In this document: in pieces, positions 17,255-60,886 of the stretch
Layout: the number at the start of each line of letters is the position of its first letter
Numbering within the stretch: the first letter of the stretch is position 1
DNA from: Phycisphaerales bacterium
Lineage (GTDB): Bacteria > Planctomycetota > Phycisphaerae > WQYP01
Direction: 5' to 3'
Assembly (NCBI GenBank): GCA_027451365.1
Contig: DAIDJN010000041.1
Coordinates: forward strand, 89,679 to 153,678
DNA length: 64,000 nt
Made by a program: the position numbers and the translations under genes
The notes under the pieces: generated by a model
The model's database searches: none
Told to the model about the DNA's origin: nothing
The model's input: the letters and a program-made list of their open reading frames with translations, nothing else

Positions 17255-17357
17255 AAAATTTTATCCCTTAAAAATTTTGTCTGGAAGCAGAATGCGAGTT
17301 TAGAATCCGGCGCAGCCGGTGTCAATGCCGCCACGTGGAGTCCGCAGGAGTCGCATC

Positions 17358-18485: not shown

Positions 18486-18486
18486 T

Positions 18487-21374: not shown

Positions 21375-21794
21375 TCACAACTTTTTCCGCCGACGGGATG
21401 CTGGCTTGGCGAACGTGTGCATCCATGCCGTTGCGTCCGCTTTGTTCAATTGGCCGTCCGCGACGCCAAGACCAATGGCGATGACATCGTCATCAGTGGC
21501 GATGATGTCGAACCCGTTGTTGTCCAGGAATATCATTGCCGCCAGTACTGCACAACGCTTGTTTCCATCATGAAAGGCGCGCGCCTGGCAGATATGAAAC
21601 AGATAAGCCGCAGCCATGGCCGGAATATCCGAATGCAGATACTGGCTACCGAAGGATGCCTGTGGCATCATAACGGCAGATTCAAGCAGGCCAGGATCGC
21701 GGATGCCCGCCAGTCCGCCGTGGCCGCCCAAGGCATCGTCATGGATCGCCACAACTTCATCGACCGAAAGAAATAAAGGTTCAGTCGCGCTCAT
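21375..21794 (-). CDS. doc: Doc (death-on-curing) / Fic-fold toxin
   Basis: Fic/Doc core motif 'FHDGNKRCAVLAAMIFL' (HxFx(D/N)GNKR). Overlaps the upstream antitoxin gene by 4 nt. Confidence 0.8.
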   Translation of the reverse strand: MSATEPLFLSVDEVVAIHDDALGGHGGLAGIRDPGLLESAVMMPQASFGSQYLHSDIPAMAAAYLFHICQARAFHDGNKRCAVLAAMIFLDNNGFDIIATDDDVIAIGLGVADGQLNKADATAWMHTFAKPASRRRKKL

Positions 21795-45875: not shown

Positions 45876-46586
45876 TTATGGGCGCGGTGGATTGGATTTA
45901 ATCTTATTCGTATCAAGTGTGACCGCGCCATGCCGGGCCAGGGCGCCGCCATCCTGAATTGACGCACTGTTCATTATGATAATATCCGTGGTGGCAAGAA
46001 TGGTGCCTTCAAATGCGCTGTCCGCCCCAAGGGTGGCCGAACTTCCCACCTGCCAGAACACAAAATTCCTTGGCTCAGATCCATTGCCACGGTTAATGGA
46101 AATAACGGCTGATTTGGTGCCGGTGGTCAGAGTTGTCCCGATCTGAAATACAAACTGGGCTTTTTTATTGCCTTGGCAGTCAAGTGTGAGTATCCCGTTG
46201 AGAGTTGCCAACGACGAAAAATAATATACCCCGGGCAGCAGCGTTAACCCGCCCAGGTCCTGGCCGCTTAAATCGTGGGTCGGTTTCATCCCCTGAACCG
46301 CTTTGTAAGCGGCGGTAAGATCAATATGCGCTTTGCGGGCGACATCATCGGCCATTCGCTTGGCATGGGGCGATAAGACAATACCCGGCGGGAAGCCGGT
46401 GATATCCTCGCTGTGACTGGTTCCCACATGGCCTCCATGCACCGCGGTATCGCCGGTATTCGTGACCGCGGTACCGCCCAACACCGCAAAATTGGCGGCG
46501 GAATCTAAAATAAATTGAACCGGCGCGTGCAGCGGAAGCGTGCCCAACGGTGCAACCACCAGCATAACAAGTGTTTTATTTACCAT
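45876..46586 (-). CDS. DUF3494 (ice-binding-protein-like beta-helix) secreted protein
   Basis: AAGGAG RBS. Signal peptide. 'AANFAVLGGTAVTNTGDTAVHGGHVGTS...ITGFPPG' matches the DUF3494/IBP family start. Confidence 0.7.
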   Translation of the reverse strand: MVNKTLVMLVVAPLGTLPLHAPVQFILDSAANFAVLGGTAVTNTGDTAVHGGHVGTSHSEDITGFPPGIVLSPHAKRMADDVARKAHIDLTAAYKAVQGMKPTHDLSGQDLGGLTLLPGVYYFSSLATLNGILTLDCQGNKKAQFVFQIGTTLTTGTKSAVISINRGNGSEPRNFVFWQVGSSATLGADSAFEGTILATTDIIIMNSASIQDGGALARHGAVTLDTNKIKSNPPRP

Positions 46587-46978
46587 GGCCAATTCTCCTT
46601 TTTCACACACCGCCGCGTGGGGATGTGCGAATATGGCGCGACTGATCTTCGGTTGGGCATCGTGGAGAACGAGCTAAAGGAAAGCTGGATTCCGGGTGGG
46701 CGTCGGGGCGACTCATGCCAAGGTTTCTAAACCAACCCGCGCGAGCCGTGCGACTTCAAGCGGCCATGCTCTAGCACACTTGAATTATCAGTATAGCAGC
46801 AATTGGCGTACCGTGGTGGATTTGGTTAATTATTTTTAAAGATAGGCGGGCGGCTATCACACAGCCGGACACATAAACCGGTCAATATCAGGAAAGTCCG
46901 GATATACCTGACTTTAGTTTCTGCAAAGCCGGGGTGCTTATTGTCCGGGAATCGTCAATTTTGCCCAATTCATTCGAA

Positions 46979-47797
46979 TTATGTCCGGCGGCTGCGCCAG
47001 CGTGTCGTAAGTGTGTAAATTCCCACCAGGCCCGCCCCGGCCAACACAAGTGTTGCTGTGGCTGGCTGGCCAACTGCCGCCGGCCCGGTATTGATATTGC
47101 TGCTGGCGCAGTTACTGATGGTGTTGGCATCCAGTGTTACCGCGCCATTGCGTGCCAGAGCGCTGCCGTCGGTAATTGTGGCACCAGTATTCAACGTAAT
47201 GCTGGTTAGCGCAAGAATATGTCCTTCAAATGCGGTTCCTGTGCCCAGCGTGGCGGAACTACCCACCTGCCAGAACACATTGCAATCTGGTGTTGAACCG
47301 GAATTCAGAACCACAACCGAAGCGTTGCTGGCCGTGGTCAGCGTGCTGCCTATCTGAAAAACAAACTGCGCGGCCGAATTGCCCTGGTCATTAAGCGTCA
47401 GTGTTCCAGTAAGGCCCGCAGACGAAGAGAAAAAGTAGGTGCCCGCCGTTAGTGTTAATCCGCCCAGGTTCGTTCCTGTCAGATTCTGCGTGGGGGCTAA
47501 ACCTGCGCATGCATTGTAGGCCGTTGTTAAATCACTCTGAGCCTGACTGGCGACTGCATTGGCGGAGTCCAGTGTGTATGGAGATGTCACACTTCCCGGC
47601 GGAAAGCCGGTAATCGCCGTGCCCGGACTTACTCCCACATTTCCCCCATCTATAACCGTGTTACCTGTATTGGTCACGGTTGATCCGGCCAATACCGCGA
47701 AATTTCCCGCCGTGCCCAGCACCACGGCGGCTGGTACCGCCGCCGGGGAAACTGTTAATATCACCAACGCGGAAAAAATGATAGTCTTGGTAAACAT
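46979..47797 (-). CDS. DUF3494 (ice-binding-like) paralogue with C-terminal PEP-CTERM-like anchor
   Basis: GGAGG RBS. 'AGNFAVLAGSTVTNTGNTVIDGGNVGVSPGTAITGFPPGS' is collinear with the upstream paralogue. Tail 'GQPATATLVLAGAGLVGIYTLTTRWRSRR'. Confidence 0.7.
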   Translation of the reverse strand: MFTKTIIFSALVILTVSPAAVPAAVVLGTAGNFAVLAGSTVTNTGNTVIDGGNVGVSPGTAITGFPPGSVTSPYTLDSANAVASQAQSDLTTAYNACAGLAPTQNLTGTNLGGLTLTAGTYFFSSSAGLTGTLTLNDQGNSAAQFVFQIGSTLTTASNASVVVLNSGSTPDCNVFWQVGSSATLGTGTAFEGHILALTSITLNTGATITDGSALARNGAVTLDANTISNCASSNINTGPAAVGQPATATLVLAGAGLVGIYTLTTRWRSRRT

Positions 47798-48342
47798 TGG
47801 TCGCCTCCATTTACTTTTGTCGCCGGGTGGCGATACCAAAAGGTCGCATTTAAATAAAAAGCTGGAAGCCCTATAATTAGCCCGCCCCGCTTTTATATGT
47901 CCCAGCCATCCCGTTGAGATTGCCGAAATGATGACTAATCTCGATTACTATGTGTATGCAAACCATGTGCCGTGTTGGGTAAATCATTAAGTTGACTGAA
48001 TTCATAAAAGTTCTTGCGATCTTGGGGCTGCTTGCCGAGATTCAGTTACAGATGCGACGCAGAGGGGGCGGCAATAACGCCGCCGCCGGACATAATGTCG
48101 CGGACATTTTGTCCCAGTCGGTTGGCGAATTGCGTAAACAGGCAGAAAATTGCTGGCCAAATAATATTATTGCCAAAGGTATGGATATTGCATGGTAGTA
48201 CGTGGGGTTGTTCACGATTTTATTAATTGCGTCCCATTTTTTACCTGCGCAGAGCGTTCGGGTTGGGCGTCAGCCGCGTTCGCCAAGTCTCATTGGCTTG
48301 CTTGTAGGTGCAAAAAGACAAGATTGACCGCGGCTCGGTTGG

Positions 48343-49410: not shown

Positions 49411-50316
49411 ATGCCTGAACCAATGCGGCAATCGGAAAGCGGGTCGGCCGTCCCGGCTATTTTATCTCCGACTGGTGATCACGCCGTGAAAACGCTTGAA
49501 TCGCTGCACCGGTATATGTTGCTTGTCGCACAACATCTGGAGGAAAATGTGCACCGCATATCCATGCCGGCCCGCGGCCGGGAAGGGCCGCCTTTCGGCG
49601 AGACGCTGGACCGCATTATCCGCAAATGTGTTCATGACCTGCAATCCCTGACGCATTCCATGGCGGGAGAACTCGCGCAACGCGCGGCTCTTGAACAGCA
49701 GTTGCTGGCCACCCAGACCGTTGCCGAGCAATATCGGCAGATGGCCTTTCATGATCCGGTGACCGCGTTGCCCAACCGCATTCTGCTGCACGACCGGCTG
49801 GATATCGCCCTGGCCCAGGCCAGGCGACATAAACGTTCGTTTGCGGTTCTATTTATAGACATTGATAAATTCAAATATATAAATGATACGTTCGGACATG
49901 CCGCCGGCGATACCATTCTGCGGCTGATTGCCGACAAGCTGCGGGGCTGTATGCGAACCGAGGACACCGTAAGCCGCGCCGGCGGGGATGAATTTCTCTG
50001 CCTCCTGATGGAAGTCAAAAACCAAGACGCGGTAAAATCTGTCGCCGAGTGCATGTTCGCCCAAATCGCCCAGGCTGCGGGTACCGTTGGCTTTAATATC
50101 GCGGTGAAACTCAGTGTTGGCTGTGCCATGTGCCCGCTGGATGGCGTAACCCCCGAAATCCTTTTGCGAAACGCCGACAAGGCCATGTACCGCGCTAAGA
50201 GGGCCGGGACAGGCCTGGCCTTTTGTGATGACCATGCCGCGGATATTGATAACACATGGAAGGACAACTCCATCTCTTCGTCAGCCATGAGAATGCCCAC
50301 AAGTTATCGCTGTTGA
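49411..50316 (+). CDS. GGDEF-domain diguanylate cyclase with N-terminal coiled-coil
   Basis: 'FHDPVTALPNRILLHDRL', 'FIDIDKFKYINDTFGHAAGD', 'SRAGGDEFLCLL' (intact GGDEF). Confidence 0.8.
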   Translation: MPEPMRQSESGSAVPAILSPTGDHAVKTLESLHRYMLLVAQHLEENVHRISMPARGREGPPFGETLDRIIRKCVHDLQSLTHSMAGELAQRAALEQQLLATQTVAEQYRQMAFHDPVTALPNRILLHDRLDIALAQARRHKRSFAVLFIDIDKFKYINDTFGHAAGDTILRLIADKLRGCMRTEDTVSRAGGDEFLCLLMEVKNQDAVKSVAECMFAQIAQAAGTVGFNIAVKLSVGCAMCPLDGVTPEILLRNADKAMYRAKRAGTGLAFCDDHAADIDNTWKDNSISSSAMRMPTSYRC

Positions 50317-50339
50317 AAAGCCGGGGCGCCCAAACTGCG

Positions 50340-51490
50340 GTCCTTAAACTGATGTGCGTAAGCTGACGTGCATAAACTGGGGGTCGGGCGTCTCGCCCGA
50401 TATCGCAATTGAATAAGGAGACCTTAATTTGAGGTCCTTAAACTGATATGTTTAAACTGATATGTTTAAACTGATGTGTTGAAGCTGATGTGCTTAAGCT
50501 GGGGGTCGGGCGTCTCGCCCGACATGTCATCCCCACCGGCGGCCAGGATGGCCGCCCCCCACGAAGACTGTTTACAATCCGCAAGCAAATGGCGACAAGG
50601 CGCGCCACCAGATCGCCCTCACCCACGCCAAGATTTACCTCTCGCCCGATATCGCAATTGAATAATGAGACGTTAATTTGAGGACCTTAAACTGATGTGC
50701 CTAAGCGGATGTGTTTAAGCTGATGTTCTTAAGCTGATGTGTTTAAGCGGATGTGTTTAAATTGGGGGTCGTGCGTCTCGCCCGACACGTCATCCTCACC
50801 GGCGGCCAGGATGGCCGCCCCCCACGAAGACTGTTTACAATCCGCAAGCAAATGGCGACAAGTCGCGCCACCAGATCGCCCTCACCCACGCCAAGATGAA
50901 GTCTCGCCCGATATCGCAATTGAATAAGGAGACGTTAATTTGAGGTCCTTAAACTGATATGTCTAAACTGATGTGCGTAAACTGATATGCTTAAACTGAT
51001 GTGTTTAATCTGGGGGTCGGGCGTCTCGCCCGACACGTCATCCCCACCGGCGGCCAGGATGGCCGCCCCCCAGGAAGACTGTTTACAATCCGCAAGCAAA
51101 TGGCGACAAGTCGCGCCACCAGATCGACCTCACCCACGCCAAGATGTACATCTCGTCCGATATCGCAATTGAATAATGAGACGTTAATTTGAGGTCCTTA
51201 AACTGATGTGCCTAAGCGGATGTGTTTAAGCTGATGTTCTTAAGCTGATGTGTTTAAGCTGATGTGCTTAAGCTGGGGGTCGGGCGTCTCGCCCGACATG
51301 TCATCCCCACCGGCGGCCAGGATGGCCGCCCCCCAGGAAGACTGTTTACAATCCGCAAGCAAATGGCGACAAGTCGCGCCACCAGATCGCCCTCACCCAC
51401 GCCAAGATGGACACCTCGCCCGACATGTCATCCCCACCGGCGGCCAGGATGGCCGCCCCCCACGAAGACTGTTTACAATCCGCAAGCAAA
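50340..51490. repeat. Modular nested tandem-repeat array (about 4.5 units of roughly 250 bp). Each unit has four modules: M3 (37 bp, 'tatcgcaattgaataaggagacgttaatttgaggtcc'); M4 (4-5 tandem 14-bp direct repeats 'TTAARCTGATGTGY'); M1 (palindromic hairpin 'gggggTCGGGCGtctCGCCCGA'); M2 (about 127 bp, containing the hairpin 'GGCGGCCaggatGGCCGCC' and ending with a second 'tctcgcccga').
   Basis: Direct inspection. Units at about 50401-50649, 50650-50912, 50913-51160, 51161-51423, plus an extra M2 copy to 51490. Copies are more than 95% identical. The first unit (50380-50401) lacks M2 ('empty site'). No ORF is conserved across units in a fixed frame, because the 14-bp period shifts frame. Confidence 0.9.
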
Positions 51491-51606
51491 GCGCGATAAA
51501 AAGCGTCATCGCGTCGCAAGTCGCCACTTTGACCCGGCCATTATGGCCCGGCCGTCAGGCGCGGCCCGCCGCTTAACAAAAAACGCCGCTTTGGCCCAAA
51601 AAATAT

Positions 51607-51623
51607 GTGGCACATGAATTGCT
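51607..51623 (+). promoter_or_regulatory. Sigma-54 (-24/-12) promoter: TGGCAC-N5-TTGCT
   Basis: 'gTGGCACatgaaTTGCTt' has the GG and GC dinucleotides separated by exactly 10 nt, as in the RpoN consensus (TGGCACG-N4-TTGCW). It is 64 bp upstream of the DUF3309 start. Confidence 0.6.
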
Positions 51624-51686
51624 TAATATACTGGCGTGGTTTTAAATTGACCACGGGTGGGGAACAAAACTGAAAGGCGTGTACTC

Positions 51687-51851
51687 ATGGGTTTGATTTT
51701 GCTTGTTGTATTGGTCCTGATCATGCTTAGTGTGCTTCCCACGTGGGGTTACAGTCGTCAATGGGGTTATGGCCCGACTGGTGGTCTGGGTGTCATTCTT
51801 CTAATCGTCATTGTGCTGGTATTAATGGGTGTTATTCCCGGTAGATTTTAA
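51687..51851 (+). CDS. DUF3309-family small membrane protein (about 54 aa)
   Basis: 'MGLILLVVLVLIMLSVLPTWGYSRQWGYGPTGGLGVILLIVIVLVLMGVI' has two TM helices and the conserved 'PTWPYSR.WGY.P.GGLG' core of DUF3309. The ORF-track start at 51657 is probably too long. Confidence 0.6.
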   Translation: MGLILLVVLVLIMLSVLPTWGYSRQWGYGPTGGLGVILLIVIVLVLMGVIPGRF

Positions 51852-52124
51852 ATATCATCGCGCGTCGCCTTCAAGAAATAGCCGTATTTAGTGTCGGAAC
51901 GCATTAAAAAGCGCGGAGTGTGGAACAAAATATTCCCGAGGTTTCTCTCATGCGGGCGGGCGGTGCACCCCGCGCACATGGGCTGGATGTCGGCGAATTT
52001 CCCGGAAAATTGCCCGGTTTCAATTGGTCTGTCCAATAACGGGCGAATTTTCCAAAGTGGTTTGATGTGCGTGGCCTTCAGATTAATCTGACCTGCCGCG
52101 ATATCAAATAGTATTTAAGGAGAC

Positions 52125-52919
52125 ATGAAAATGTTTCGTAAAAACATCACAACGTGGTTGTCCGCCGGAGCTGTCGCTTCGCTGGCCTTATCCGGCGCCG
52201 TTTCCGCGGTGCAGGCTCAGCCGGTTATTGAGTACAGCCTGAACAATGGCGCCACCTTCACCAGTCTGGCTAATCCCAGCGCCATCAACACCATCGTGGA
52301 TGGTTCGATCGGCGCATTTACCGTCACCAGTCTTTCGGCCCTGGCGGTGAACAACAGCAGTCTTGCTAATTTGAATCTCGGAATGGCCAGCATCAGTTTT
52401 GCCGCCACTCCTGGTTCAACCGTCAGCAATGTCAATATTCTGTTCCAGGCCAGCGCTACCGGATTCACTTATGATCCCGTCGGCGTGAATTTCCTGGAAT
52501 CAGCGGGTTCGGCCACCCTGCTTCATGTGGCGTCATCCACTGGCGATTCCCTTTCACTTAAGGGTGGGTCGGACACGGGTAATAATCTCTTTACCTTCAC
52601 CACCACATCCAACCCGGTCGGGAGTCCGTTTGTATTCGCTGGTTCCACCTCTTCAGGAACCGAAAGTTCCAGTTTTGGAATTGACCCTGTGCCGAATCCA
52701 AGCATTAATTCCACGGGCTATTCGCTGACCACCACATTGGATTTTACCAGCTTTTACGTGGGTGATATTTATAACAATCCGTCATCCACAGTCACCGTCT
52801 CCAATACCGAGCCGCTTTCGGCAGGCGCCGCGCCACTGCCCGCGACCGGTCTTCTGACCCTGGTGGGGGGAATCGCCATGATTGGCGGAGTGGCGATCCG
52901 TCGCCGCCTGAAGGTCTAA
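52125..52919 (+). CDS. Secreted Ser/Thr/Asn-rich protein with PEP-CTERM-like tail (variant PLPAT)
   Basis: GGAG RBS. Signal peptide 'AVASLALSGAVSAVQA'. C-terminus 'AAPLPATGLLTLVGGIAMIGGVAIRRRLKV'. Confidence 0.6.
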   Translation: MKMFRKNITTWLSAGAVASLALSGAVSAVQAQPVIEYSLNNGATFTSLANPSAINTIVDGSIGAFTVTSLSALAVNNSSLANLNLGMASISFAATPGSTVSNVNILFQASATGFTYDPVGVNFLESAGSATLLHVASSTGDSLSLKGGSDTGNNLFTFTTTSNPVGSPFVFAGSTSSGTESSSFGIDPVPNPSINSTGYSLTTTLDFTSFYVGDIYNNPSSTVTVSNTEPLSAGAAPLPATGLLTLVGGIAMIGGVAIRRRLKV

Positions 52920-53165: not shown

Positions 53166-53282
53166 CGGGTGTCGGGCGTCTGGCCCGACGAATTGTTCCC
53201 ACCGGCGGCCAGGATGGCCGCTCCCGTCAAGACTGTTTACAACCCGCAAGCAAATAATGACAAGACGCGCCACCAGCTCAAC
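53166..53282. repeat. Diverged solo copy (about 80% identity) of the M1 hairpin plus M2 module from the 50.3-51.5 kb array
   Basis: 'ggtgTCGGGCGtctGGCCCGAcgaattgttcccaccGGCGGCCaggatGGCCGCtcccgtcaagactgtttacaacccgcaagcaaataatgacaagacgcgccaccagctca' aligns collinearly with the M1-M2 consensus. Confidence 0.7.
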
Positions 53283-53468
53283 AGCGTTCACACATTAACC
53301 TACGCCTTCCCCGACGGTTGCAATTCAATTGGCCAGGCATCAACTCCGGCGGCTACGAATGGCCGCCCGTCAAGAATATTTGCCGTCAGCAAGTGGTTTG
53401 TGATATGACACGTCTGGTGATCAAACCCAGTGCGCTTTGCCATGAAATTGTTCAGTCAATAAGTCCGG

Positions 53469-54980
53469 TTATGCGGGGGAATGCGGCGTTCGGGAATCTG
53501 CGGCGGTGGCACGGTTTATATCCGTGCGAAGCAGCACCAACGAAGGTGTTTCCTGGCGTCCCAGCTTGCGCTGCAACGTTCGCACGCTGATGCCAATTGC
53601 GTGGGCCGCGCGCGTTTTATTATTGTGGTGCCGCTGCATGGCCGCTTGTATGGCCAATTGTTCAAGTTGCGCCAGTGTCAGAAGTGGCTCATCTTCGTTC
53701 GTGGAAATATAACTGGAAATTATCGTCGGCGGGACAACCGGTGCAAGGCCCCGCTGTGTCGGGGCTATCGCCAGCGCCCCGGATGCGTCTTGTATGGCCG
53801 GCGGCAGGTCCTTCAGACTGATGACCGTATTGTCGCGGTCTGACAGCACCATTGCGCGCTCTATCACGTTCAGCAGTTCTCTTACGTTTCCGGGCCAGTG
53901 ATAGCGTTGCAGGGCCTCCATCGCCGGGATGGAGATGGAATCAATCGGTGTGGCGATATTCCGCAGATTCACATGCTCAATAAAATAGCGCACCAGCAGT
54001 GGTATATCATCAAGGCGAGCCCGCAGGGGCGGTACACGGATGGTGATGATGTTCAGGCGATAATATAAATCTTCACGAAATAAGCCTTCCCGTACCATAT
54101 TTGGCAAATCTCGGCTCGTGGCCGCAATCACGCGCGTATTTACCTTGATCTCGCGATGGCCGCCCAGCGGGGTGACAATTCTATTTTCCAGAATTCGCAG
54201 AAGCTTCGCCTGAAGAGACAATGCGCAATCGCCAATCTCATCAATAAAAAGTGTGCCGCCGCTGGCCGCCTCAAACCGCCCGATTCGCGAACCGACCGAT
54301 CCGGAAAAGGCCCCCTTGTCGTATCCGAATAATTCACTTTCCACCAGCGTTTCCGGCATGGCCGCACAGTTTAAAGCAATAAACGGTCCCGTTTTTCTCT
54401 GCGAATTCCGGTGAATGGCCTGCGCCACCAGGTCCTTACCTGTGCCCGATTCGCCAAGAATAAGGACTGTGCTGAACGCCCGTGAAGACCGGGCAATCAA
54501 ATCAAAAACATCCCGCATGAGCTGGGATTGACCAATGATATGGTCATTGACACCATCGCCAATTTCCGGCGTGGGGGGCTTCTGTTCGTTCTGGCACGCA
54601 TGAATCAGGTCCATCAGGCGGGACAGCATCAGCTTTGCATCGGTTACATTTTGCAGATCATCAAATGTGCCCGTGTTAATGGTTTCAATCAGGGATTTCA
54701 CGGATTCGGTTTCATGAATAACCGGCAAAGGTGTGTTCGGAAAATAATTTCGCCAGTGCTTAATCAGGTCCAGACGCGATATGTCTCCGGATATAACCCC
54801 AGCCACAACGCAATCAATGCCCTCGCCCACAAAACTCAGCGCCTTTTCCGCGGAATCCGTGGTTTTGACAACATAACCCGCGTTGGTCAGCAACTGTTCC
54901 AGCGCGGCACGCTGGCTCGGATTGTCTTCAATCACCAGTATTTCATATTGATCAGTTTGATCACTTTTTTGAGAAGTCAT
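53469..54980 (-). CDS. Sigma-54-dependent transcriptional activator (NtrC-family bEBP): receiver-like domain, AAA+ domain, Fis-type HTH
   Basis: Walker A 'GESGTGKDLVAQAIH'. GAFTGA-equivalent 'YDKGAFSGS'. 'ESELFGY'. C-terminal 'RAAHAIGISVRTLQRKL' HTH. The N-terminal receiver-like domain appears to lack the canonical phospho-acceptor Asp. Confidence 0.85.
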   Translation of the reverse strand: MTSQKSDQTDQYEILVIEDNPSQRAALEQLLTNAGYVVKTTDSAEKALSFVGEGIDCVVAGVISGDISRLDLIKHWRNYFPNTPLPVIHETESVKSLIETINTGTFDDLQNVTDAKLMLSRLMDLIHACQNEQKPPTPEIGDGVNDHIIGQSQLMRDVFDLIARSSRAFSTVLILGESGTGKDLVAQAIHRNSQRKTGPFIALNCAAMPETLVESELFGYDKGAFSGSVGSRIGRFEAASGGTLFIDEIGDCALSLQAKLLRILENRIVTPLGGHREIKVNTRVIAATSRDLPNMVREGLFREDLYYRLNIITIRVPPLRARLDDIPLLVRYFIEHVNLRNIATPIDSISIPAMEALQRYHWPGNVRELLNVIERAMVLSDRDNTVISLKDLPPAIQDASGALAIAPTQRGLAPVVPPTIISSYISTNEDEPLLTLAQLEQLAIQAAMQRHHNNKTRAAHAIGISVRTLQRKLGRQETPSLVLLRTDINRATAADSRTPHSPA

Positions 54981-55506: not shown

Positions 55507-56118
55507 TTAAATGCCTATGCCGACGACCACCATCGGTACCGCCGGACTGCTTCTCCCCTGACGAATAAGATCGTAAAGGCCGCCTTCGTAATATCCGACG
55601 CCCGAGGACATCTGTGATTGAAAGTGTTTTATTGGAAGTATTTCGATGCCTACATCAATGACGTCGCCCACGAAAAAAGCCATATGCTTTACAAACATGT
55701 CGTAAGCCACAAAAGAATATTTGCCAAATTGTATTTCCAGGGCGATGCGATCCTTCACGAAATCGGTCTGATTGTAGGATTTAATAGGTGTTTTGCTGGC
55801 CTTCTCGATCTCGTGTTTTTGCTGATCCGGCTGTAAAGTCAACGTCCGGCGAATAAGCTGATGATCAGATGTGACCCAATAATAAGTGCGGGATTCCTTC
55901 CAGCCAAGCGGGCCGAGTGCTCTTGTAAAAGCGCTGTTCATGGCGACGGGGCTGTAAAGCGTTCGCCCTCTCATGGTTTTCTCACGGGAGATTTTCGTAC
56001 GGCATTTCTCGGCGTCAATACCTTCGATGACCTCTTCAACTTCTTTCCACAATTCCGGTTTGTGAACCAAGATATGTTCATGACCGTTAAGATGCGAATA
56101 AAGCGCGTGAATCTTCAC
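55507..56118 (-). CDS. Type II restriction endonuclease, BglII/BstYI-like
   Basis: 'HILVHKPELWKEVEEVI' and 'FVKDRIALEIQFGKYSF' parallel BglII ('EILNPQLWKEILETL', 'DFGKRDTLVEVQFSNYPF'). Overlaps the methyltransferase stop by 4 nt. Local GC is lower than in flanking DNA. Confidence 0.55.
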   Translation of the reverse strand: MKIHALYSHLNGHEHILVHKPELWKEVEEVIEGIDAEKCRTKISREKTMRGRTLYSPVAMNSAFTRALGPLGWKESRTYYWVTSDHQLIRRTLTLQPDQQKHEIEKASKTPIKSYNQTDFVKDRIALEIQFGKYSFVAYDMFVKHMAFFVGDVIDVGIEILPIKHFQSQMSSGVGYYEGGLYDLIRQGRSSPAVPMVVVGIGI

Positions 56119-57098
56119 GATTGGCCCCCGCTGGGCAAGGTGGGGTCGTAAATCGGCCTGTCCATCGGACGAGTTTTAAGCAGACCGGCACGCAGAGACT
56201 CAACGCGGTTCTGGGCAATTTGAACATAACGCGGATCAATATCGCACCCCACGCCATCGCGGCCGTTTTTAATTGCCGCTATTACGCTGGTTCCCGCGCC
56301 CATATAAGGGTCGAAGACCGTTTGGCCCGCCCTGGTCATGGAAAGCACCAATCGTTCCACCAGTTCAACCGGAAATTGGCACGGGTGTGCGGTTTTTTCC
56401 ACATGGTTTGCCTTTACATTTGGTATCAACCACACATCTCCCGGATTTTTACCCAACGGATTGCAGGAGAACTGCCCGGCCCGCGGACCTTTGAAATATT
56501 TCTTTCCCGGATATTTCGACGGTACCCGAATCGGATCCAGATCGAATACATAATCATCCGATTTGGTGAACCACAGGATCACTTCGTAGCGTCCGGAAAA
56601 TCGCTTGGTGCAATGCAATCCGTGCGCAAAATGCCAGACAATGCGATTTCGCAGCATCAGGCCATGTTTTTTGAAAATTGGGTATAGCACAACGTCCAGC
56701 GGAACAACTTCGCGTTCCAGACTGATGTGATTGCCGACCTGCCAGCAAATTGAGCCATTCGGACGCAGGAGGCGAACGCATTCCGCGATAACTTGTTCCT
56801 GCGATTGAATATAGCCGCCCAGACTGTTGCGCCGCTCATATTCTTTGCCAATATTATACGGTGGTGAGGTAATGATTAACTGTGCCAGGGCATCGGGCAG
56901 AGTCGCCATAAATTTAAGGTTATCCTGACAGGCGATGGTTGCGTCGCCTAATTTCAGGGAATCGGCGGAGGGGTTATGGTCGTACGAAGAGAAGAGTGTA
57001 GGCGTCATAATACGAACCGCTCCATTGTATGACTTGATTGAAATATACCATAGAGGACCAATTTTCGCACCAGTCGCTGATTTTCCGCGGACCGGCAA
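56115..57098 (-). CDS. DNA methyltransferase (beta-class N4-cytosine/N6-adenine, 'SPPY' type); cognate of the BglII-like REase
   Basis: Catalytic motif IV 'ITSPPYNIG'. AdoMet motif I 'VFDPYMGAGTSVIAA'. ParB-less small MTase architecture typical of Type II systems. Confidence 0.8.
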   Translation of the reverse strand: MPVRGKSATGAKIGPLWYISIKSYNGAVRIMTPTLFSSYDHNPSADSLKLGDATIACQDNLKFMATLPDALAQLIITSPPYNIGKEYERRNSLGGYIQSQEQVIAECVRLLRPNGSICWQVGNHISLEREVVPLDVVLYPIFKKHGLMLRNRIVWHFAHGLHCTKRFSGRYEVILWFTKSDDYVFDLDPIRVPSKYPGKKYFKGPRAGQFSCNPLGKNPGDVWLIPNVKANHVEKTAHPCQFPVELVERLVLSMTRAGQTVFDPYMGAGTSVIAAIKNGRDGVGCDIDPRYVQIAQNRVESLRAGLLKTRPMDRPIYDPTLPSGGQS

Positions 57099-57281: not shown

Positions 57282-57974
57282 TTATTTTTTTCCTATTCCG
57301 TCCACTAGCGTTTGCACGATGTCGCGGGCAATTTCCAGTGGATCGCGCTCCCCGGCGCAGGGCCGGCCGTGCGAAAAGTTCAGCACCTTGTTGGCATAAC
57401 CATTCACCAGGCACCACCAGGCCAGCACCAGCATATCGGAGTCTCCCGCACGGATTTCGCCGGCCTTCTGGCCCTGCCGGACGGTTTCCAGAAGCAGCAT
57501 ACGGCCATTGGCGGATGCCGCCTCCACCGGGGACGTCGGCGTTCCGCCACAGCAGCCATCGCGGGATTTCCGCAATTCCGGCCGGTGCATCAGACGGAAT
57601 TCCGCCGGGTGTTCAATCGCAAAGCGAACAAATTCCACCCCCATGGCAATTAATTTATCCAGAGAATTGCCGCGCGTTTTATGCTGCTGAAGGCGCATTG
57701 CGTCTATCATCGCGGTGATGCAGGAAACAGTGGCGGCTTCCAGAATCGCGCCTTTGTCGCGGAAATGGTGGTATGGCGCGTTGTGGCTTACTCCCGCCTG
57801 CTGGGCCACACGGCGAATGGTCAGGCCATCCGGACCGCGTTTGTCCACGATTTTAATCGCGGCTGAAACCAGCTCGGCGCGCAGGTTTCCATGGTGATAG
57901 CCGCGGGCAATTTCCGGCGATTTGCGGGCCTTGGATCGCCGGGAGTGCTTAGGCATAACTGTTAATCTTGACAT
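57282..57974 (-). CDS. TetR/AcrR-family transcriptional repressor
   Basis: N-terminal HTH 'GLTIRRVAQQAGVSHNAPYHHFRDKGAIL'. Divergent from the RND efflux operon. Confidence 0.8.
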   Translation of the reverse strand: MSRLTVMPKHSRRSKARKSPEIARGYHHGNLRAELVSAAIKIVDKRGPDGLTIRRVAQQAGVSHNAPYHHFRDKGAILEAATVSCITAMIDAMRLQQHKTRGNSLDKLIAMGVEFVRFAIEHPAEFRLMHRPELRKSRDGCCGGTPTSPVEAASANGRMLLLETVRQGQKAGEIRAGDSDMLVLAWWCLVNGYANKVLNFSHGRPCAGERDPLEIARDIVQTLVDGIGKK

Positions 57975-58146: not shown

Positions 58147-59757
58147 ATGGAAAATGTTTCCCTATCGCCCCAATGCCGACCAGAAAATCCGGATCGTCAA
58201 CCGGGCCGCGCCTTTTGGCGGGGCTTGGTTCCCTGCGCCCTGCTGATTGGTCTGGGGATGGCCGGTTGTTCCTTTGAACCGCCATTGCATGTCCCCCCCG
58301 CGCCGCAAGTGCATGCCTATACCGCCGGCAAACCCGTCCGCGGAACTGTCGCGGTCAAGGGCGTGGGCCAGGCCGGTGCGGGGCAGCGGTTCGCCTATGG
58401 AAAAAAAATCCGGCGCACCTGGTGGAGACTTCTGAAATCAAAACAGATAAACGCATTAATCAAACGGGCGGTCGCCCACAGCCCCACCATCACTCAGGCA
58501 CTGGCCACCCTGCAAGAGGCGCACCAGAACACGAAAGCCATTGATGGTGAAGGCTGGCCGCAGGTGTCGCTGACCGGAGGCGGCGACCGTCAGCGATTCA
58601 GCGGCGCGCAATTCGGTGGTCCGACCCGCAGCTTCAGTCTGTACACCGGGCAGGTGAATGTCAGTTACACGCCGGACCTGTTCGGTTTGAACAAACTTGC
58701 CCGTCATCAGACCCGCGCCCTGGAGGATGCCCAGCGGTTTAATCTGCAGGAGGCATATCTAACGCTGGAGGGAAACACTGTTTCCGATGCCATATTAATG
58801 GCCTCGTATGAAGCGCAAATACGGACCACCCGCAAGCTTGTTACGATTCAGCGGAATATTCTCAAGTTGATTGCGCAACAGTACAAGCTTGGCGCAGTAA
58901 CATATTTAGACGTGTTAAATCAACGGACATTGCTGGAAACCACAAAAGCCAGGTTGCCCCCGTTGAAACAATCGCTTGCCGCAGTGCGCCATGCTCTGGC
59001 GGTTCTGGTGGGAACGATCCCTTCCCAGGCCGGATTGCCCTCCATTCGCCTGAAATCATTGAAACTGCCGATGATGATCCCCGTCTCGCTGCCGTCGGTT
59101 CTGACGCGCAATCGGCCGGATATTAAACTTGCCGAGGCCGAGCTTCGCGCTGACAACGCCTCCATCGGCGTGGCCATTGCCAAAATGTACCCCACCGTTC
59201 AACTCACCGGCGACCTGGGGTTTGAAAATGGACGCATTCCCGACTTTTTCAATGCCTCAAGCCTGATCTGGGATGTTGCCGCCAATGCCAGCGTGACGCT
59301 GTTTGACGGCGGCACACTTATTGCCAACAAGCGGGCGGCCCAGGCGGCCCTTCGGGCGCAGATTGCCGCCTATCAATCCACTGTCCTGGCCGCTTTTCAA
59401 CAGGTTGCCGATGCGCTGCGGGCGATACAGAATGATGCAACGTCGCTGAAGTTCAATCAGTCCGCATATATCAGCGCGGGCCAGGCATTCGTTCTGGCCC
59501 GCAGACAATACCGCGCCGGTGCCATTGATTATCTTTCCCTGCTTAACACCCAGACGCAATTCCAACAGTCCGAACTTGGCGTTGTAACCGCCGAAGCTCA
59601 GCGCTATCGGGATACCGCCGCGCTGTTTGTGGCGTTGGGCGGTGGCTGGTGGCCGAAGCAATATTCCCGCCAAAAGCAGGCCGTTGCGCCGGCGCGGACC
59701 CGCCCCGCAGCGGCAAAGCCGACGAATAAGTCCAATCAAGTGAATGCGATTCCATAA
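58147..59757 (+). CDS. RND efflux outer-membrane factor lipoprotein (NodT/OprM/TolC family)
   Basis: Lipobox 'LIGLGMAGC|SF'. Two repeated halves with 'LLD...T' patterns typical of OMF. The exact start is uncertain. Confidence 0.75.
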   Translation: MENVSLSPQCRPENPDRQPGRAFWRGLVPCALLIGLGMAGCSFEPPLHVPPAPQVHAYTAGKPVRGTVAVKGVGQAGAGQRFAYGKKIRRTWWRLLKSKQINALIKRAVAHSPTITQALATLQEAHQNTKAIDGEGWPQVSLTGGGDRQRFSGAQFGGPTRSFSLYTGQVNVSYTPDLFGLNKLARHQTRALEDAQRFNLQEAYLTLEGNTVSDAILMASYEAQIRTTRKLVTIQRNILKLIAQQYKLGAVTYLDVLNQRTLLETTKARLPPLKQSLAAVRHALAVLVGTIPSQAGLPSIRLKSLKLPMMIPVSLPSVLTRNRPDIKLAEAELRADNASIGVAIAKMYPTVQLTGDLGFENGRIPDFFNASSLIWDVAANASVTLFDGGTLIANKRAAQAALRAQIAAYQSTVLAAFQQVADALRAIQNDATSLKFNQSAYISAGQAFVLARRQYRAGAIDYLSLLNTQTQFQQSELGVVTAEAQRYRDTAALFVALGGGWWPKQYSRQKQAVAPARTRPAAAKPTNKSNQVNAIP

Positions 59758-59785
59758 AGCCTCACCCATTTAAGGATTTGTCATC

Positions 59786-60886
59786 ATGTTCAAACGTCTG
59801 TTTCTTGCCATATTTCTGCTGGTTATAATTGGCGGATTGCTGGTGGCTATTTTTGGTTTTAAGGCATTTATAAACCGGAAAATAGCCAACGTCATGGCGC
59901 ATCTGCCGGTGCCCCCCGTGACGGTTTCCACCGCCAAGGCCGGTAATGCTTCCTGGCCGGTGAATCTGTCTGCGGTAGGTTCACTAACCGCGGTGCAAAG
60001 TGTGGATTTAACCGCACAAATATCGGGCAATGTGACGGGAATCTATTTTCATTCCGGCAAGGAAGTCAAGCCGGGGCAATTGCTTCTGCAAATTGATAAT
60101 TCAACCCAATTGGCTCAACTTCGTGTGGACCAGGCGAATCTGGCCCTGGCAAGAACCAATTTGGCCAGAACGATTAAGCTGATCAAGGTTCGCGCCGCTG
60201 CGCAATCACAACTTGATACCTATCGGGCCAATGTGGCTACAGCGTTGGCGCAGGTTCAATCGGACAATGCCACTCTGGCCAAACTGGCCATTCGCGCCCC
60301 GTTTGCCGGCTATCTGGGGCTGCGGCAAGTCAGTCTGGGGCAGTTTGTCGCACCGGGAACATCCATTGTGACGCTGAATTCGTGGCAGCCGATTTACGCG
60401 GTGTTTTCTATTCCGCAGAATAATATTGCCGCTCTGGCAATGGGCCGTAAAGTGACGTTGCGCGTCAACAGTTTTCCCGGACGCGTATTCACGGGAACCA
60501 TATCAGCGATTTCTTCACAGGTGGATGTGAATTCGCGGAATGTTCAGGTGCAGGCGACGTTTCCCAATAAAATGGAATTGCTTAAACCCGGCATGTTCGG
60601 TGATATTTCCGTGGCGACGGGCAAGGTGCTGCACGTGACTGTTGTCCCGGCGCTTGCCGTCGCCTACAGCACATTTGGGGATTATGTCTATGTGGTAAAA
60701 AAGACCGGCAAGGGAAAAAAGGTTGTCCTGACCGCCAAACAGATTCTCGTGCATCCTGGATTGCAACGTGGAGATATGGTGGCCATTACTTCCGGCATTA
60801 AGGCCGGCCAGACCGTTATAACCGTCGGGCAGATCAAACTTCATCCTGGCGCTGTCATTTTAATTAATAATTCAGTCAAGCCCTGA
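59786..60886 (+). CDS. RND efflux periplasmic adaptor (membrane fusion protein, AcrA/HlyD family)
   Basis: N-terminal TM anchor. Coiled-coil hairpin. Lipoyl/beta-barrel motifs ('AIRAPFAGYLG'). Confidence 0.8.
   Translation: MFKRLFLAIFLLVIIGGLLVAIFGFKAFINRKIANVMAHLPVPPVTVSTAKAGNASWPVNLSAVGSLTAVQSVDLTAQISGNVTGIYFHSGKEVKPGQLLLQIDNSTQLAQLRVDQANLALARTNLARTIKLIKVRAAAQSQLDTYRANVATALAQVQSDNATLAKLAIRAPFAGYLGLRQVSLGQFVAPGTSIVTLNSWQPIYAVFSIPQNNIAALAMGRKVTLRVNSFPGRVFTGTISAISSQVDVNSRNVQVQATFPNKMELLKPGMFGDISVATGKVLHVTVVPALAVAYSTFGDYVYVVKKTGKGKKVVLTAKQILVHPGLQRGDMVAITSGIKAGQTVITVGQIKLHPGAVILINNSVKP

Follow-up and report, generated by a model that had tools for sequence, protein, structure and literature searches.

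The 64-kb window (i.e. the whole stretch of DNA that was analysed) carries a compound tandem repeat at positions 50344-51490. Immediately upstream lies a gene for a GGDEF-domain protein (diguanylate cyclase) on the plus strand at 49411-50316 (Pfam PF00990, E = 2.8e-45), with a gene call in the same-species contig L001. Downstream, also on the plus strand, is an operon at 51687-52919, which encodes a DUF3309 small membrane protein (51687-51851; Pfam PF11752, E = 7.8e-20) and, from gene calls, a 262-aa protein of no known family (52131-52919). The 3′ boundary of the repeat is marked by a native conserved upstream region at 51491-51623, which lies outside the repeat and includes a plus-strand sigma-54 promoter (TGGCACatgaaTTGCT, 51608-51623), the sole perfect match to TGGCAC-N5-TTGCW in the window. 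A terminator scan found no terminator-like site from the GGDEF stop codon to the array. Further along the window are a sigma-54 activator (53469-54980) and a TetR-family protein (57282-57974).

At the sister-species loci L024 and L025, the order is the GGDEF gene, ∼370 bp and the DUF3309 gene, and the array is absent. The downstream protein there is 87-88% identical to that of the window, and the 200 bp before the gene are conserved, sigma-54 promoter included; the native region 51491-51623 aligns with both loci at a score that none of 2000 shuffles reached. The array is lineage-specific: both loci keep the gene order and the promoter without it.

Organisation of the array

The initial annotation described modular units, each built of 14-mers, a palindrome, an insert of about 127 bp and a linker, and this structural description holds. 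Self-comparison of the region recovered nested periodicities, with Tandem Repeats Finder reporting a period of 263 over 50420-51423 (3.9 copies, score 1574) and period-14 arrays of 4.6-5.6 copies each nested within it. There are four nested levels, i.e. 14 bp, 127 bp (the module defined here as M2), 249-263 bp and 511 bp, and the array is the sole substantial tandem repeat of the window.

The shortest level consists of direct copies of the 14-mer TTAARCTGATGTGY. Allowing up to two mismatches, there are 20 matches in the window against 0.88 expected by chance; all lie within the array, with four to five good copies per block in units 1-4. The middle copies of the blocks are homogeneous (12-14/14) and the in-phase edge copies on both sides are degenerate (9-10/14), the pattern expected of slippage-driven arrays. 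The conserved core is TAA.C.GAT.T, and the repeat also has a core, GCTTAAGC / GTTTAAAC, that is palindromic in part. As a separate observation, the 14-mer differs from a DnaA box at a single position, and there is a YidC gene at a distance of 8 kb.

Each unit has two strong GC-rich hairpins. The first is the palindrome TCGGGCGTCTCGCCCGA (PAL), which occurs five times in the array (0 expected), with a stem of 7-8 bp, a 3-nt loop and a DNA fold of -10.4 kcal/mol (z = -4.6). The second, GGCGGCCaggatGGCCGCC (HP2), lies inside M2 and also occurs five times (0 expected); its stem is 7-8 bp and its fold -10.6 kcal/mol (z = -3.4). PAL, on the plus strand, and HP2, on the minus strand, face each other 15 nt apart in a head-to-head-dimer-like arrangement. 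M2 is 126-127 bp long and is bounded on both sides by (G)TCTCGCCCGA, the direct duplication noted at the outset. Along with HP2 it has two weaker hairpins, HP3 being without any fold in the major variant, and each unit includes a non-palindromic stretch of ∼90 bp. The 37-bp linker occurs four times. The variable patch in M2, first given as 5 nt, is 4-5 nt long and supplies 5 of the 18 variable columns. It is unusually variable and yet stable between strains, which simple slippage does not explain.

All of these units are given on the plus strand. Unit 0 (50330-50400) is an empty form without M2: a degenerate 14-mer at 50330-50343 is followed by two good copies (50344-50371), a degenerate one running into PAL, and PAL itself (50384-50400), which is intact and joins the next linker directly, as had been claimed for the first unit. 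Unit 1 (50401-50649, A type, 249 bp) comprises the linker (50401-50437), four 14-mers (50438-50493) and one degenerate copy, PAL (50506-50522) and an M2 at 50523-50649 with HP2 at 50538-50556 and the patch TTACC. In unit 2 (50650-50911, B type, 262 bp), the linker (50650-50686) is followed by five 14-mers (50687-50756), one degenerate copy, a PAL with one mismatch (50769-50785) and an M2 at 50786-50911, which has HP2 at 50801-50819 and the patch GAAG with a 1-nt deletion. Unit 3 (50912-51160, A type, 249 bp) again has four 14-mers (50949-51004) and one degenerate copy after its linker (50912-50948), then PAL (51017-51033) and an M2 (51034-51160) with HP2 at 51049-51067, the patch GTACA and the right-hand repeat CTCGTCCGA. 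Unit 4 (51161-51423, B type, 263 bp) has its linker at 51161-51197, five 14-mers at 51198-51267 plus one degenerate copy, PAL at 51280-51296 and an M2 at 51297-51423 (HP2 51312-51330, patch GGACA). The last unit does carry two insert copies, since this full M2 is followed by a terminal partial M2 (51424-51490; HP2 51439-51457, then the HP3 region) that matches the first 67 nt of the full copies at 97-100% identity. This partial copy ends at ...GCAAGCAAA (51490), and conserved native sequence begins at 51491.

Weak similarities were seen at both edges of the array. The M2 nhmmer alignment at the array end reaches model position 99, i.e. it extends ∼20 nt into the native tail, and the 3′ half of M2 has weak similarity to the native promoter-upstream sequence (p ∼0.008-0.016). 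At the other edge, the linker and the 3′ end of the GGDEF gene share a colinear 14/17 match (TATCGCTGTTGAA-AAG versus TATCGCAATTGAATAAG) with p ∼0.01-0.02 in a narrow test, a similarity that is not significant in a wider test or with nhmmer; this gives no more than a hint that the linker may derive from the end of the gene.

The units alternate A-B-A-B. Identity is 92.8% between u1 and u3, 95.1% between u2 and u4 and 87-89% between adjacent units, and the higher values for the alternate pairs define an A-B super-unit of 511 bp (93.9% identity).

The array is non-coding, as first proposed: its units of 249, 262, 249 and 263 bp have open frames that differ from unit to unit, and no array open reading frame has a Pfam match. 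Protein-coding repeats were rejected, as the two frames that are open across M2 vary by unit. Nor is the array a CRISPR, since every part of the unit is repeated and the sole variable stretch is the 4-5 nt patch, with no unique spacers.

Strain variation and the empty and filled palindrome

Among the same-species contigs the module order is constant and the number of units ranges from 1 to 4, as counted in short-read assemblies, which can collapse repeats; intergenic lengths are 485, 748, 972 and 1371 bp. The number of 14-mers also differs between assemblies, and most of the contigs break inside the array. Such breaks and differing unit numbers are what a collapsed or mis-joined repeat would give, but three assemblies (L003, L004 and L010) are identical across two units, distinct and ordered unit markers are common to strains, and at least one independent assembly shows each junction type, that of the M2 of unit 1 excepted. 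Since independent assemblies recover the same junctions, we consider an artefact of assembly unlikely, indeed barely credible.

The array differs between strains far more than its surroundings. In the alignment of the window with L001, identity is 98.5-99.5% in the flanks and 96.0% in the orthologous part of the array, where the indels measure exactly 14 and 28 bp; the divergence of the array is ∼5 times that of the flanks (96.0% versus ∼99% identity). Together with the A-B-A-B pattern of unit identities, this alignment shows recent expansion and concerted evolution, one or the other of which had been proposed from the near-identity of the units. L001 also has a three-base variant (TTTGC...GCAAACAAAGGG) common to non-adjacent units, which points to gene conversion.

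The state of unit 0 is polymorphic, being empty in the window, L002, L003 and L028 and filled with M2 in L001. The patches of the three M2 copies of L001 (GAAG, GTACG and GGACG) and the markers linked to them follow the order found in window units 2-4. L001 thus amounts to the array of the window with about two units fewer and the junction at the palindrome. An M2-M2 doublet is common to L001 and L008.

A second locus lies ∼1.7 kb downstream of the array. The element solo-a (53168-53316, plus strand) consists of an old PAL (53172-53188) and an M2 (nhmmer E = 1.6e-21) that is full length and 72-73% identical to the array copies; CCCGAC and a sequence resembling the start of the linker (TTGCAATTCAAT) come next. 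Directly after solo-a lies solo-b (53336-53421, plus strand), which resembles M2 but has decayed further (nhmmer E = 1.3e-4, model positions 15-102); it has the hairpin GGCGGCtacgaatGGCCGCC and then TTTGCcgtcaGCAAG. The two look like an old, decayed two-unit array. All same-species contigs have solo-a, which is absent from the sister-species loci L024, L025 and L026; neither solo copy is present in L026.

The initial annotation took the filled and empty palindromes for the trace of a small, non-autonomous, MITE-like element, M2, whose insertion would have split the palindrome and duplicated 9-10 bp of the target site, the filled unit then being amplified in tandem. M2 is small and non-coding, like MITEs, and is flanked by short direct repeats; both the empty and the filled state exist; there is a second, diverged copy in solo-a; and insertion sequences that target REP hairpins, such as IS1397 and ISPpu9/10, are known. 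However, M2 is without terminal inverted repeats: a scan of 50200-51700 gave no inverted repeat of at least 14 nt, and the two ends of the module (CATGTCATCC... and ...CCAAGATGNNNN), when read directly, are mutually unrelated. The M2 of solo-a has the same palindrome, flanking CCCGAC and linker start, so that the ‘duplication’ is part of the repeated unit, which travels along with M2, and not a copied target. The filled unit 0 of L001, in turn, has the marker order of window u2-u4 (GAAG, GTAC, GGAC), which means that unequal crossing-over explains the unit 0 polymorphism.

Dispersed copies with site-specific duplications, as found for MITEs, were not seen either. Beyond the array and 53168-53421, M2 was found nowhere in the other 61 kb of the window, the sister-species loci, plasmids or phages. 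Its core pattern had 0 matches in the genome collection (which does not include this species) and 0 in the metagenome collection, no copy was found in the viral collections, and blastn searches with a whole unit found no similar sequence among 72,556 plasmids or 50,697 phages. The 14-mer dimer pattern had 0 matches in viral contigs and a single metagenome match, in an unrelated AT-rich contig. The 64-kb window has no transposase, integrase or replication gene; the transposase scan covered 50 of the 52 ORFs of at least 90 aa and found no Y1_Tnp or other transposase, and the remaining two are RND efflux genes (58147-60886) identified from gene calls. We regard the insertion of a MITE-like element as very unlikely, contradicted as it is by the M2 ends, solo-a and L001. 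These comparisons favour unequal recombination at the palindrome over transposition as the explanation of the filled/empty signature.

Resemblance to REP and BIME elements

REP elements are imperfect palindromes of 20-40 nt that usually have more than 100 dispersed extragenic copies per genome, with an unpaired GTAG (GTRG/GTGG) tag at one end of the stem-loop. A ‘BIME/REP-like mosaic element’ was among the candidates first listed for the array, and it proves to be the closest known kind, given a pair of GC-rich hairpins in opposite orientation that is reiterated in tandem. Both PAL and HP2 are short, GC-rich imperfect palindromes whose stems fall within the 6-13 bp of REP hairpins (92.5% of cells are paired in the hairpin alignment, versus 33-47% in slid controls), and their plus/minus pair, 15 nt apart, is repeated 4-5 times at 249-263 bp, as in a BIME. 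The likeness extends to the extragenic location directly after a gene, to the reiteration of the two different hairpins together with flanking DNA, to the strain-variable copy number and to a possible GTGG-type tag. REPs have been reported in the Planctomycetes/Verrucomicrobia group (PMC3733652; PMC2817692). On its minus strand, HP2 reads GTGG-GG-GGCGGCC-ATCCT-GGCCGCC in three of five copies; the putative tag reads CGTGG-GG-GGCGGCC in these three window copies and CCTGG-GG in the other two, and PAL has CTGG/TTGG.

There are also differences. The array units are much longer than those of REP and BIME clusters, with a 14-bp minisatellite and the ∼90-bp non-palindromic stretch, the tag is degenerate, and the spacing in E. 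coli BIMEs is much smaller. In addition, the hairpins occur at only two neighbouring loci in 64 kb, which is not the density expected of a high-copy REP, and no RAYT (REP-associated tyrosine transposase) was found in the window.

The HP2 22-mer was found at 13 loci in the genome collection. Nine of these are chance matches in coding regions of GC-rich genomes, and the other four are in one Methylococcaceae MAG, where the identical stem-loop is a dispersed intergenic repeat with a clear GTAG or GTGG tag and, in ORF listings, ordinary flanking genes. A methanotroph origin of the window and homology between the MAG repeat and the array were considered and withdrawn: the nhmmer similarity stops at the hairpin (∼29 nt), and the MAG belongs to a different phylum, its UvrD matching Methylococcus and Methylocaldum and the MurJ of the window matching Phycisphaerae/Planctomycetota. 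The C-rich and G-rich heptamers that flank HP2 and the MAG hairpin gave no statistically detected similarity. Because of the difference in phylum and the end of the similarity at ∼29 nt, the identity of the two hairpins may be due to convergence or chance.

An active REPIN/BIME-type element was also considered, in which a RAYT gene in another part of the genome would mobilise PAL and HP2 as a REP pair. The array would then be a hot spot of RAYT-driven insertion or rolling-circle-like reiteration and not a product of passive recombination. A single-copy RAYT usually lies elsewhere in the genome than a given REP cluster. Inverted hairpins 15 nt apart with G-rich tags on the outside (GTGG on the minus strand of HP2), two loci within 3 kb that fit local hopping, and the identical GTAG-tagged hairpin dispersed in the Methylococcaceae MAG all suit such an element; because of this last match, PAL and HP2 could even be substrates of an unseen HUH transposase common to several phyla. 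REP amplification has been linked with clustering in the literature (PMC3733652; PMC2817692), which would also favour mobilisation. However, no RAYT was found in the window, its 64 kb with ∼50 intergenic regions have no other copies, the PAL and HP2 stems are unrelated and so form no REPIN-type long hairpin, and homologous exchange and slippage explain all of the strain differences. We consider RAYT-driven mobilisation unlikely.

The array most resembles known REP/BIME clusters and is not a new kind of genetic system; nothing that was found points to a new biochemical system. Our preferred reading, which we hold to be probable, is that of a lineage-specific, non-coding, hypervariable compound tandem repeat, i.e. 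a REP/BIME-type hairpin cluster reiterated together with flanking DNA and a 14-bp minisatellite. From the comparison of loci, a block of PAL and M2 would have settled in the space that separates the GGDEF gene from the conserved region of the sigma-54 promoter, and once more at the downstream locus. The block would then have multiplied by unequal recombination or replication slippage in steps of 14 bp, 127 bp, ∼256 bp and 511 bp, the 127-bp step presumably by exchange between the 9-11 bp CTCGCCCGA repeats, with gene conversion keeping the copies alike. On this reading, the empty first unit and the doubled last M2 are products of such exchanges, not of transposition.

Other strain-variable repeats offer partial parallels. 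VNTRs, minisatellites and higher-order repeats are likewise intergenic, vary in unit number between strains via slippage or unequal crossing-over, and share with the array degenerate edge copies and A-B-A-B order. Mycobacterial MIRUs differ in being single-level repeats of 40-100 bp with small reading frames, whereas the array has four nested levels and strong hairpins. Neisserial NIMEs (modules of 50-150 bp bounded by short repeats) and pneumococcal BOX elements (a variable number of internal modules, BOX A-Bn-C) are intergenic and strain-variable like the array but are dispersed at many loci per genome, in contrast to the two adjacent loci known for the array, with which they presumably share no sequence similarity.

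Possible roles and significance

Because the array lies directly after the GGDEF gene with no terminator in between, its stable hairpins would be transcribed in the 3′ UTR of that gene. In that position they could hold up 3′ exonucleases and reduce transcriptional read-through to the sigma-54 operon, which is under separate control, a role proposed purely by analogy with E. coli REP clusters. One of these, REP325, a tandem cluster in a 3′ UTR, is both a partial terminator and a stabiliser of the upstream mRNA (bioRxiv 10.64898/2026.03.23.713779). Like the array, REP325 (yjdM-yjdN) is a tandem hairpin cluster between two same-strand genes; its function has been shown, whereas that of the array is a surmise, the operon downstream of the array has its own sigma-54 promoter, and the two sequences are unrelated. 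The array most likely has no sequence-specific function, and is probably either neutral or a 3′-UTR hairpin insulator.

Alternatively, the array might be a functional, rapidly tunable regulatory device, with 14-mers that bind a regulator or a hairpin-rich small RNA in each unit. We think this quite unlikely. In the first version, the number of 14-mers, changed by slippage, would govern how strongly the c-di-GMP (GGDEF) gene and the sigma-54 DUF3309 operon are expressed, or how well they are insulated, in the manner of a contingency locus.

The 14-mers could be iterons for a regulator such as the neighbouring NtrC-type sigma-54 activator and act as a distant enhancer, decoy or insulator. There are 20 near-identical copies with the core TAA.C.GAT.T and the partly palindromic GCTTAAGC/GTTTAAAC junction, lying 120-1270 bp upstream of the window's sole perfect sigma-54 promoter and with the activator gene 1.8 kb away, but in sister species the promoter and the operon (and, in L026, the activator gene as well) are retained without any 14-mers. 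The number of 14-mers drifts from strain to strain in steps of 14 or 28 bp, the edge copies decay as in neutral minisatellites, the 14-bp spacing is out of phase with the DNA helix, and the 14-mer occurs nowhere else in the window or in the metagenome and viral collections. Moreover, sigma-54 activators usually bind inverted repeats rather than direct ones. A set of regulator-binding iterons is, in our view, very improbable.

The array might instead specify one small structured RNA gene per unit, or a protein-sponge RNA with repeated 14-nt motifs, which we find extremely doubtful. There are several stable hairpins per unit; the minus strand of every M2 has a terminator-like hairpin followed by TTTGCTTGC; some 14-mers have the form AAGCGGAUGU, which is near the CsrA SELEX motif; and solo-a and solo-b have G-U-compatible changes on the plus strand. 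Yet no promoter-like site was found in any unit of the array, and Rfam gave no match for the array at gathering score or at E up to 5. Whole units fold no more stably than their shuffles (z = +0.15 and -0.16), none of 27 base pairs covaries (397 of 500 shuffles reach the observed score), and HP3 is unfolded in the major variant. GGA, the motif on which the CsrA-sponge idea depends, is present only in the minority of 14-mers with CGGAT, and sister species lack the array altogether.

Several other candidates were rejected. For a plasmid or phage replication origin with iterons, there was no plasmid or phage match, no replication gene and no GC-skew switch. A replication origin or DnaA-box cluster was discarded, with no GC-skew switch, no dnaA or rnpA context and an array that sister species do without. 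Integron attC sites or cassettes were dismissed for want of an extended imperfect palindrome, a GTTRRRY core site and an integrase.

The array does not open a long-standing question. It is chiefly a worked example, from an uncultured planctomycete-like lineage, of the way in which a compound repeat grows and is rearranged at the time-scale of strains (i.e. below 1% sequence difference), and in which an apparent filled/empty-site signature is better read as a product of recombination than as a scar of transposition. In practical terms, it breaks the short-read assemblies of the species, and strains could be typed by it as a VNTR locus. If it does belong to the REPs, the array would add a REP/BIME-type family to the little-studied Phycisphaerae, and one would have to ask how an identical hairpin came to be dispersed in the genome of a gammaproteobacterial methanotroph.

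Architecture and setting of the repeat array

The array (approximately 50330–51490) lies between a GGDEF diguanylate-cyclase gene (49411–50316, + strand) and a two-gene operon encoding a small DUF3309 membrane protein (51687–51851) and a 262-aa protein of unknown family (52131–52919), beyond which is a convergent gene for an NtrC-type sigma-54 activator (53469–54980, − strand). Tandem Repeats Finder reported a period of 263 bp present in 3.9 copies (score 1574 across 50420–51423), with period-14 arrays nested within every unit, and no second substantial tandem repeat was found elsewhere in the 64-kb window. The modules all occur in the array at counts far above chance expectation: the 14-mer has 20 matches, all of them within the array (0.88 expected by chance), the GC-rich palindrome PAL (TCGGGCGTCTCGCCCGA) and the second hairpin HP2 (GGCGGCCaggatGGCCGCC) have five copies each, and the 37-bp linker has four. 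The nested repeat described in the initial annotation is real and occupies the position given for it.

Unit 0 (50330–50400) has 14-mers and PAL and is ‘empty’ (i.e. without the 126–127 bp module, M2). Units 1 (50401–50649), 2 (50650–50911), 3 (50912–51160) and 4 (51161–51423) are ‘filled’, each having the linker, four or five 14-mers, PAL and M2, and a terminal partial M2 occupies 51424–51490. The sequence (G)TCTCGCCCGA borders M2 at both its left and right ends.

Several features add to the original description. The units follow an A-B-A-B order, with identities of 92.8% between units 1 and 3 and 95.1% between units 2 and 4, compared to 87–89% between neighbours; the 511-bp two-unit blocks are 93.9% identical. 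The array was therefore last enlarged by duplication of a 511-bp pair of units. Within the 14-mer blocks the central copies are near-perfect, and in-phase copies at both edges are degenerate. Downstream of the operon, on the same strand as the array (+), there is a diverged PAL plus M2 (solo-a, 53168–53316) followed directly by a more decayed M2 (solo-b, 53336–53421).

Within M2, a patch of 4–5 nt immediately left of the right-hand repeat is hypervariable, while the rest of the module is 94–96% identical. The patches at 50634–50640, 50897–50902, 51145–51151 and 51408–51414 are TTACC, GAAG, GTACA and GGACA, respectively, and that of unit 3 completes a perfect 12-bp palindrome, AGATGTACATCT. Five of the 18 variable M2 columns fall in the patch, which is multi-allelic yet stable between strains.

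Variation between strains and sister species

An exact look-up of the DUF3309 protein gave 16 same-species contigs, whose flanks are 98.5–99.7% identical to the window. The GGDEF and DUF3309 genes are 1371 bp apart in the window and 972, 748 and 485 bp apart in contigs L001, L003 and L002, respectively; seven further contigs end inside the array. Module order is constant; contigs vary in how many units and 14-mers they have and in the presence or doubling of M2. Three independent assemblies (L003, L004 and L010) are identical across two units, and a terminal M2-M2 doublet is common to L001 and L008. This is evidence against an assembly artefact, a possibility that the initial annotation had raised.

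Between L001 and the window, identity is 98.5–99.5% in the flanking genes and intergenic DNA and only 96.0% in the orthologous part of the array, where the indels are exactly 14 and 28 bp long. In L001, the three complete M2 copies have the patches GAAG, GTACG and GGACG, against GAAG, GTACA and GGACA in units 2–4 of the window, and the linked markers (CACGTC with GATCGACC; CATGTC with CCAGG) have the same order as in these units. L001 therefore corresponds to the window arrangement minus about two units, following an exchange at PAL that left its first unit filled where that of the window is empty. The filled and empty sites, which had been interpreted as the signature of an insertion, are thus explained by exchange. 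Since the same patches recur in the same order in another strain, the patch is a marker of long-standing unit identity, not of continuing hypermutation. A three-base variant in the region of the third hairpin, HP3 (TTTGC...GCAAACAAAGGG), is common to two non-adjacent units of L001, pointing to gene conversion. Taken with the degenerate edges of the 14-mer blocks, the turnover shows standard minisatellite or higher-order repeat dynamics, in which the 14-bp level would change by slippage, the 127-bp level by recombination between the 9–11 bp CTCGCCCGA repeats, and the unit level by unequal crossing-over.

In two sister species (L024 and L025), where the downstream protein is 87–88% identical and gene order is as in the window, the array is absent. 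The window aligns strongly with both over the ∼200 bp preceding the DUF3309 gene (0 of 2000 shuffles reached the score), and the ∼180-bp spacer upstream has no resemblance to the repeat unit. The aligned region contains a sigma-54 promoter, TGGCACatgaaTTGCT (51608–51623, 64 nt before the DUF3309 start), which is the only perfect match in the window and is kept in the two sister species (TGGCACaagaaTTGC and TGGCACaaggaTTGC). The promoter and ∼120 bp upstream (51491–51623) are conserved in both species, including GCGCGATAAAAAGCG...ATCGCG and the near-palindrome CCGGCCATTATGGCCCGG, and this is probably a binding region for the sigma-54 activator. L026, which is more distantly related (71% identity), has only 130 bp from the 262-aa gene to the activator gene and hence lacks the solo copies. 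The array and solo copies are thus recent and belong to one lineage, and the conserved control of the neighbouring operon does not require them. From these comparisons we infer a compound repeat of recent origin that is lineage-specific, non-coding and driven by recombination, with the filled/empty signature a product of recombination.

Candidate identities

A protein-coding array was rejected, in agreement with the initial annotation, as the units are 249, 262, 249 and 263 bp long, the open frames of M2 differ by unit, one patch has a 1-nt deletion and the array ORFs had no Pfam match even at E = 1. There was no Rfam match to a known RNA at gathering scores or at E values up to 5. Whole units were no more stably folded than shuffles on either strand (z = +0.15 and −0.16). 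In an alignment of 11 distinct copies, the four proposed helices were 92.5% paired, compared to 33–47% in slid controls. None of 27 pairs changed on both sides, and the observed covariation score was reached by 397 of 500 shuffles. PAL and HP2 are strong hairpins and the fourth, HP4, is weak. HP3 (TGTTTACaatccGCAAGCA; 50566–50589 and copies) does not fold in its common variant and folds only as the L001 variant, where A>G and G>A changes in two copies (L001 9150–9175 and 9647–9672) produce a perfect 7-bp hairpin (−6.2 kcal/mol). A T>C change in one L003 copy converts a G-T pair to G-C, so that all three variable positions turn a mismatch or wobble into a Watson–Crick pair. Quasi-palindrome template switching is a known mutation process, and the HP3 changes look like quasi-palindrome correction; they fit either this or weak selection for the hairpin.

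The initial annotation had also proposed a MITE inserted with a target-site duplication. Terminal inverted repeats are absent, and at the solo locus the supposed duplication is found again in unaltered form, alongside PAL and the beginning of the linker. Apart from the solo copies, no further M2 was found in the window, the sister loci or any collection searched. No transposase, integrase or replication protein was found in the window (Pfam, 50 of 52 ORFs of at least 90 aa; the other two are RND efflux genes at 58147–60886, identified from gene calls). A replication origin was rejected, as the array resembles no plasmid or phage searched; the window also has no GC-skew switch.

The initial interpretation is thus partly supported: the BIME/REP-like mosaic stands, and the MITE with a target-site duplication does not. 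GTAG-/CGTC-tagged repeats are stem-loops with 6–13 bp stems and a tag at one end, GTAG or a degenerate form including GTGG; they are often paired as inverted dimers 20–100 bp or less apart, and Planctomycetes and Verrucomicrobia carry such palindromic repeats (PMC3733652). In BIMEs, REPs are regularly spaced in alternating orientation and are thought to be mobilized by REP-associated tyrosine transposases (RAYTs) (PMC2817692). Similarly, PAL (+) faces HP2 (−) (CGTGG-GG-GGCGGCC-ATCCT-GGCCGCC) at a distance of 15 nt, the pair is reiterated along with the surrounding DNA, and the array lies just after a gene and differs from strain to strain. REPs are further defined by a high copy number across the genome and by a cognate RAYT. 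As the view is limited to 64 kb, in which the hairpins occur at two adjacent loci only, we describe the array as resembling REPs/BIMEs in structure and behaviour; membership is unproven.

A Methylococcaceae MAG carries an identical HP2 stem-loop, clearly tagged by GTAG or GTGG, as a dispersed repeat of its intergenic DNA. The common hairpin is 24 nt long; since the MAG is from another phylum and the similarity ends at the hairpin, we regard this as a resemblance and not as evidence of common descent. In this MAG (LaPlata-a_bin-1612) the GCGGCC-AGGAT-GGCCGC hairpin is found at L013 359–444, L016 7307–7457, L021 884–998 and 6869–6895, and L014 287–311. Heptamer microsatellites come before it at three of the five sites (GGGATCA x3.4; GGGGTCA x4.6; GGGGTTA x3.6 then CCATTCG x8), and some of the microsatellites could form G-quadruplexes.

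Wider window and proposed role

The window is probably from a poorly sampled, Phycisphaerae-like lineage of Planctomycetota. Every named homolog of its MurJ (37986–39707, −) is from Phycisphaerae, Planctomycetia or a Planctomycetota MAG, at only 50–59% identity. Other gene content is consistent with this origin: a GH95 glycosidase, a sialate-esterase-like enzyme and numerous large proteins that have no Pfam family (including ORFs of 647, 468, 454, 386 and 344 aa). A 1,267-bp stretch (55784–57050), spanning most of a BglII-like restriction endonuclease gene (55507–56118) and an N6/N4 DNA methylase gene (56115–57098), is absent from the same-species contigs L001, L003, L004 and L005, and only an 83-aa endonuclease fragment remains in L001; the restriction-modification system is therefore strain-variable, with some strains having it and others not. 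Two adjacent genes for ice-binding-like proteins (45876–47839, −; PF11999, E = 1.8e-50 and 6.6e-58) suggest a cold habitat. Two adjacent, slightly overlapping radical-SAM genes (17319–19696, +), the second with a weak SPASM-type match (20.5 bits; Pfam cut-off 21.5), lie after small ORFs bearing cytochrome-c motifs and are a possible peptide- or cofactor-maturation cluster. A small Fic/DOC-family gene (21375–21794, −; PF02661, E = 1.3e-13) is possibly the toxin half of a toxin–antitoxin pair.

No terminator-like site was found between the GGDEF stop codon and the array, and no sigma-70-like promoter within it. Given this position, the hairpins are probably transcribed in the GGDEF 3′ UTR, where they may shield the mRNA from 3′ exonucleases and may reduce read-through into the sigma-54 operon. 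In E. coli, the REP325 cluster has been shown to have such a dual role (bioRxiv 10.64898/2026.03.23.713779). On the plus strand, M2 is strongly C-rich and G-poor in its 3′ half (GC skew down to −0.49), a composition compatible with a Rho-loading region but only a hint of one. The array could just as well be neutral. Lack of the array in the sister species, together with its rapid turnover, argues against an essential sequence-specific role.
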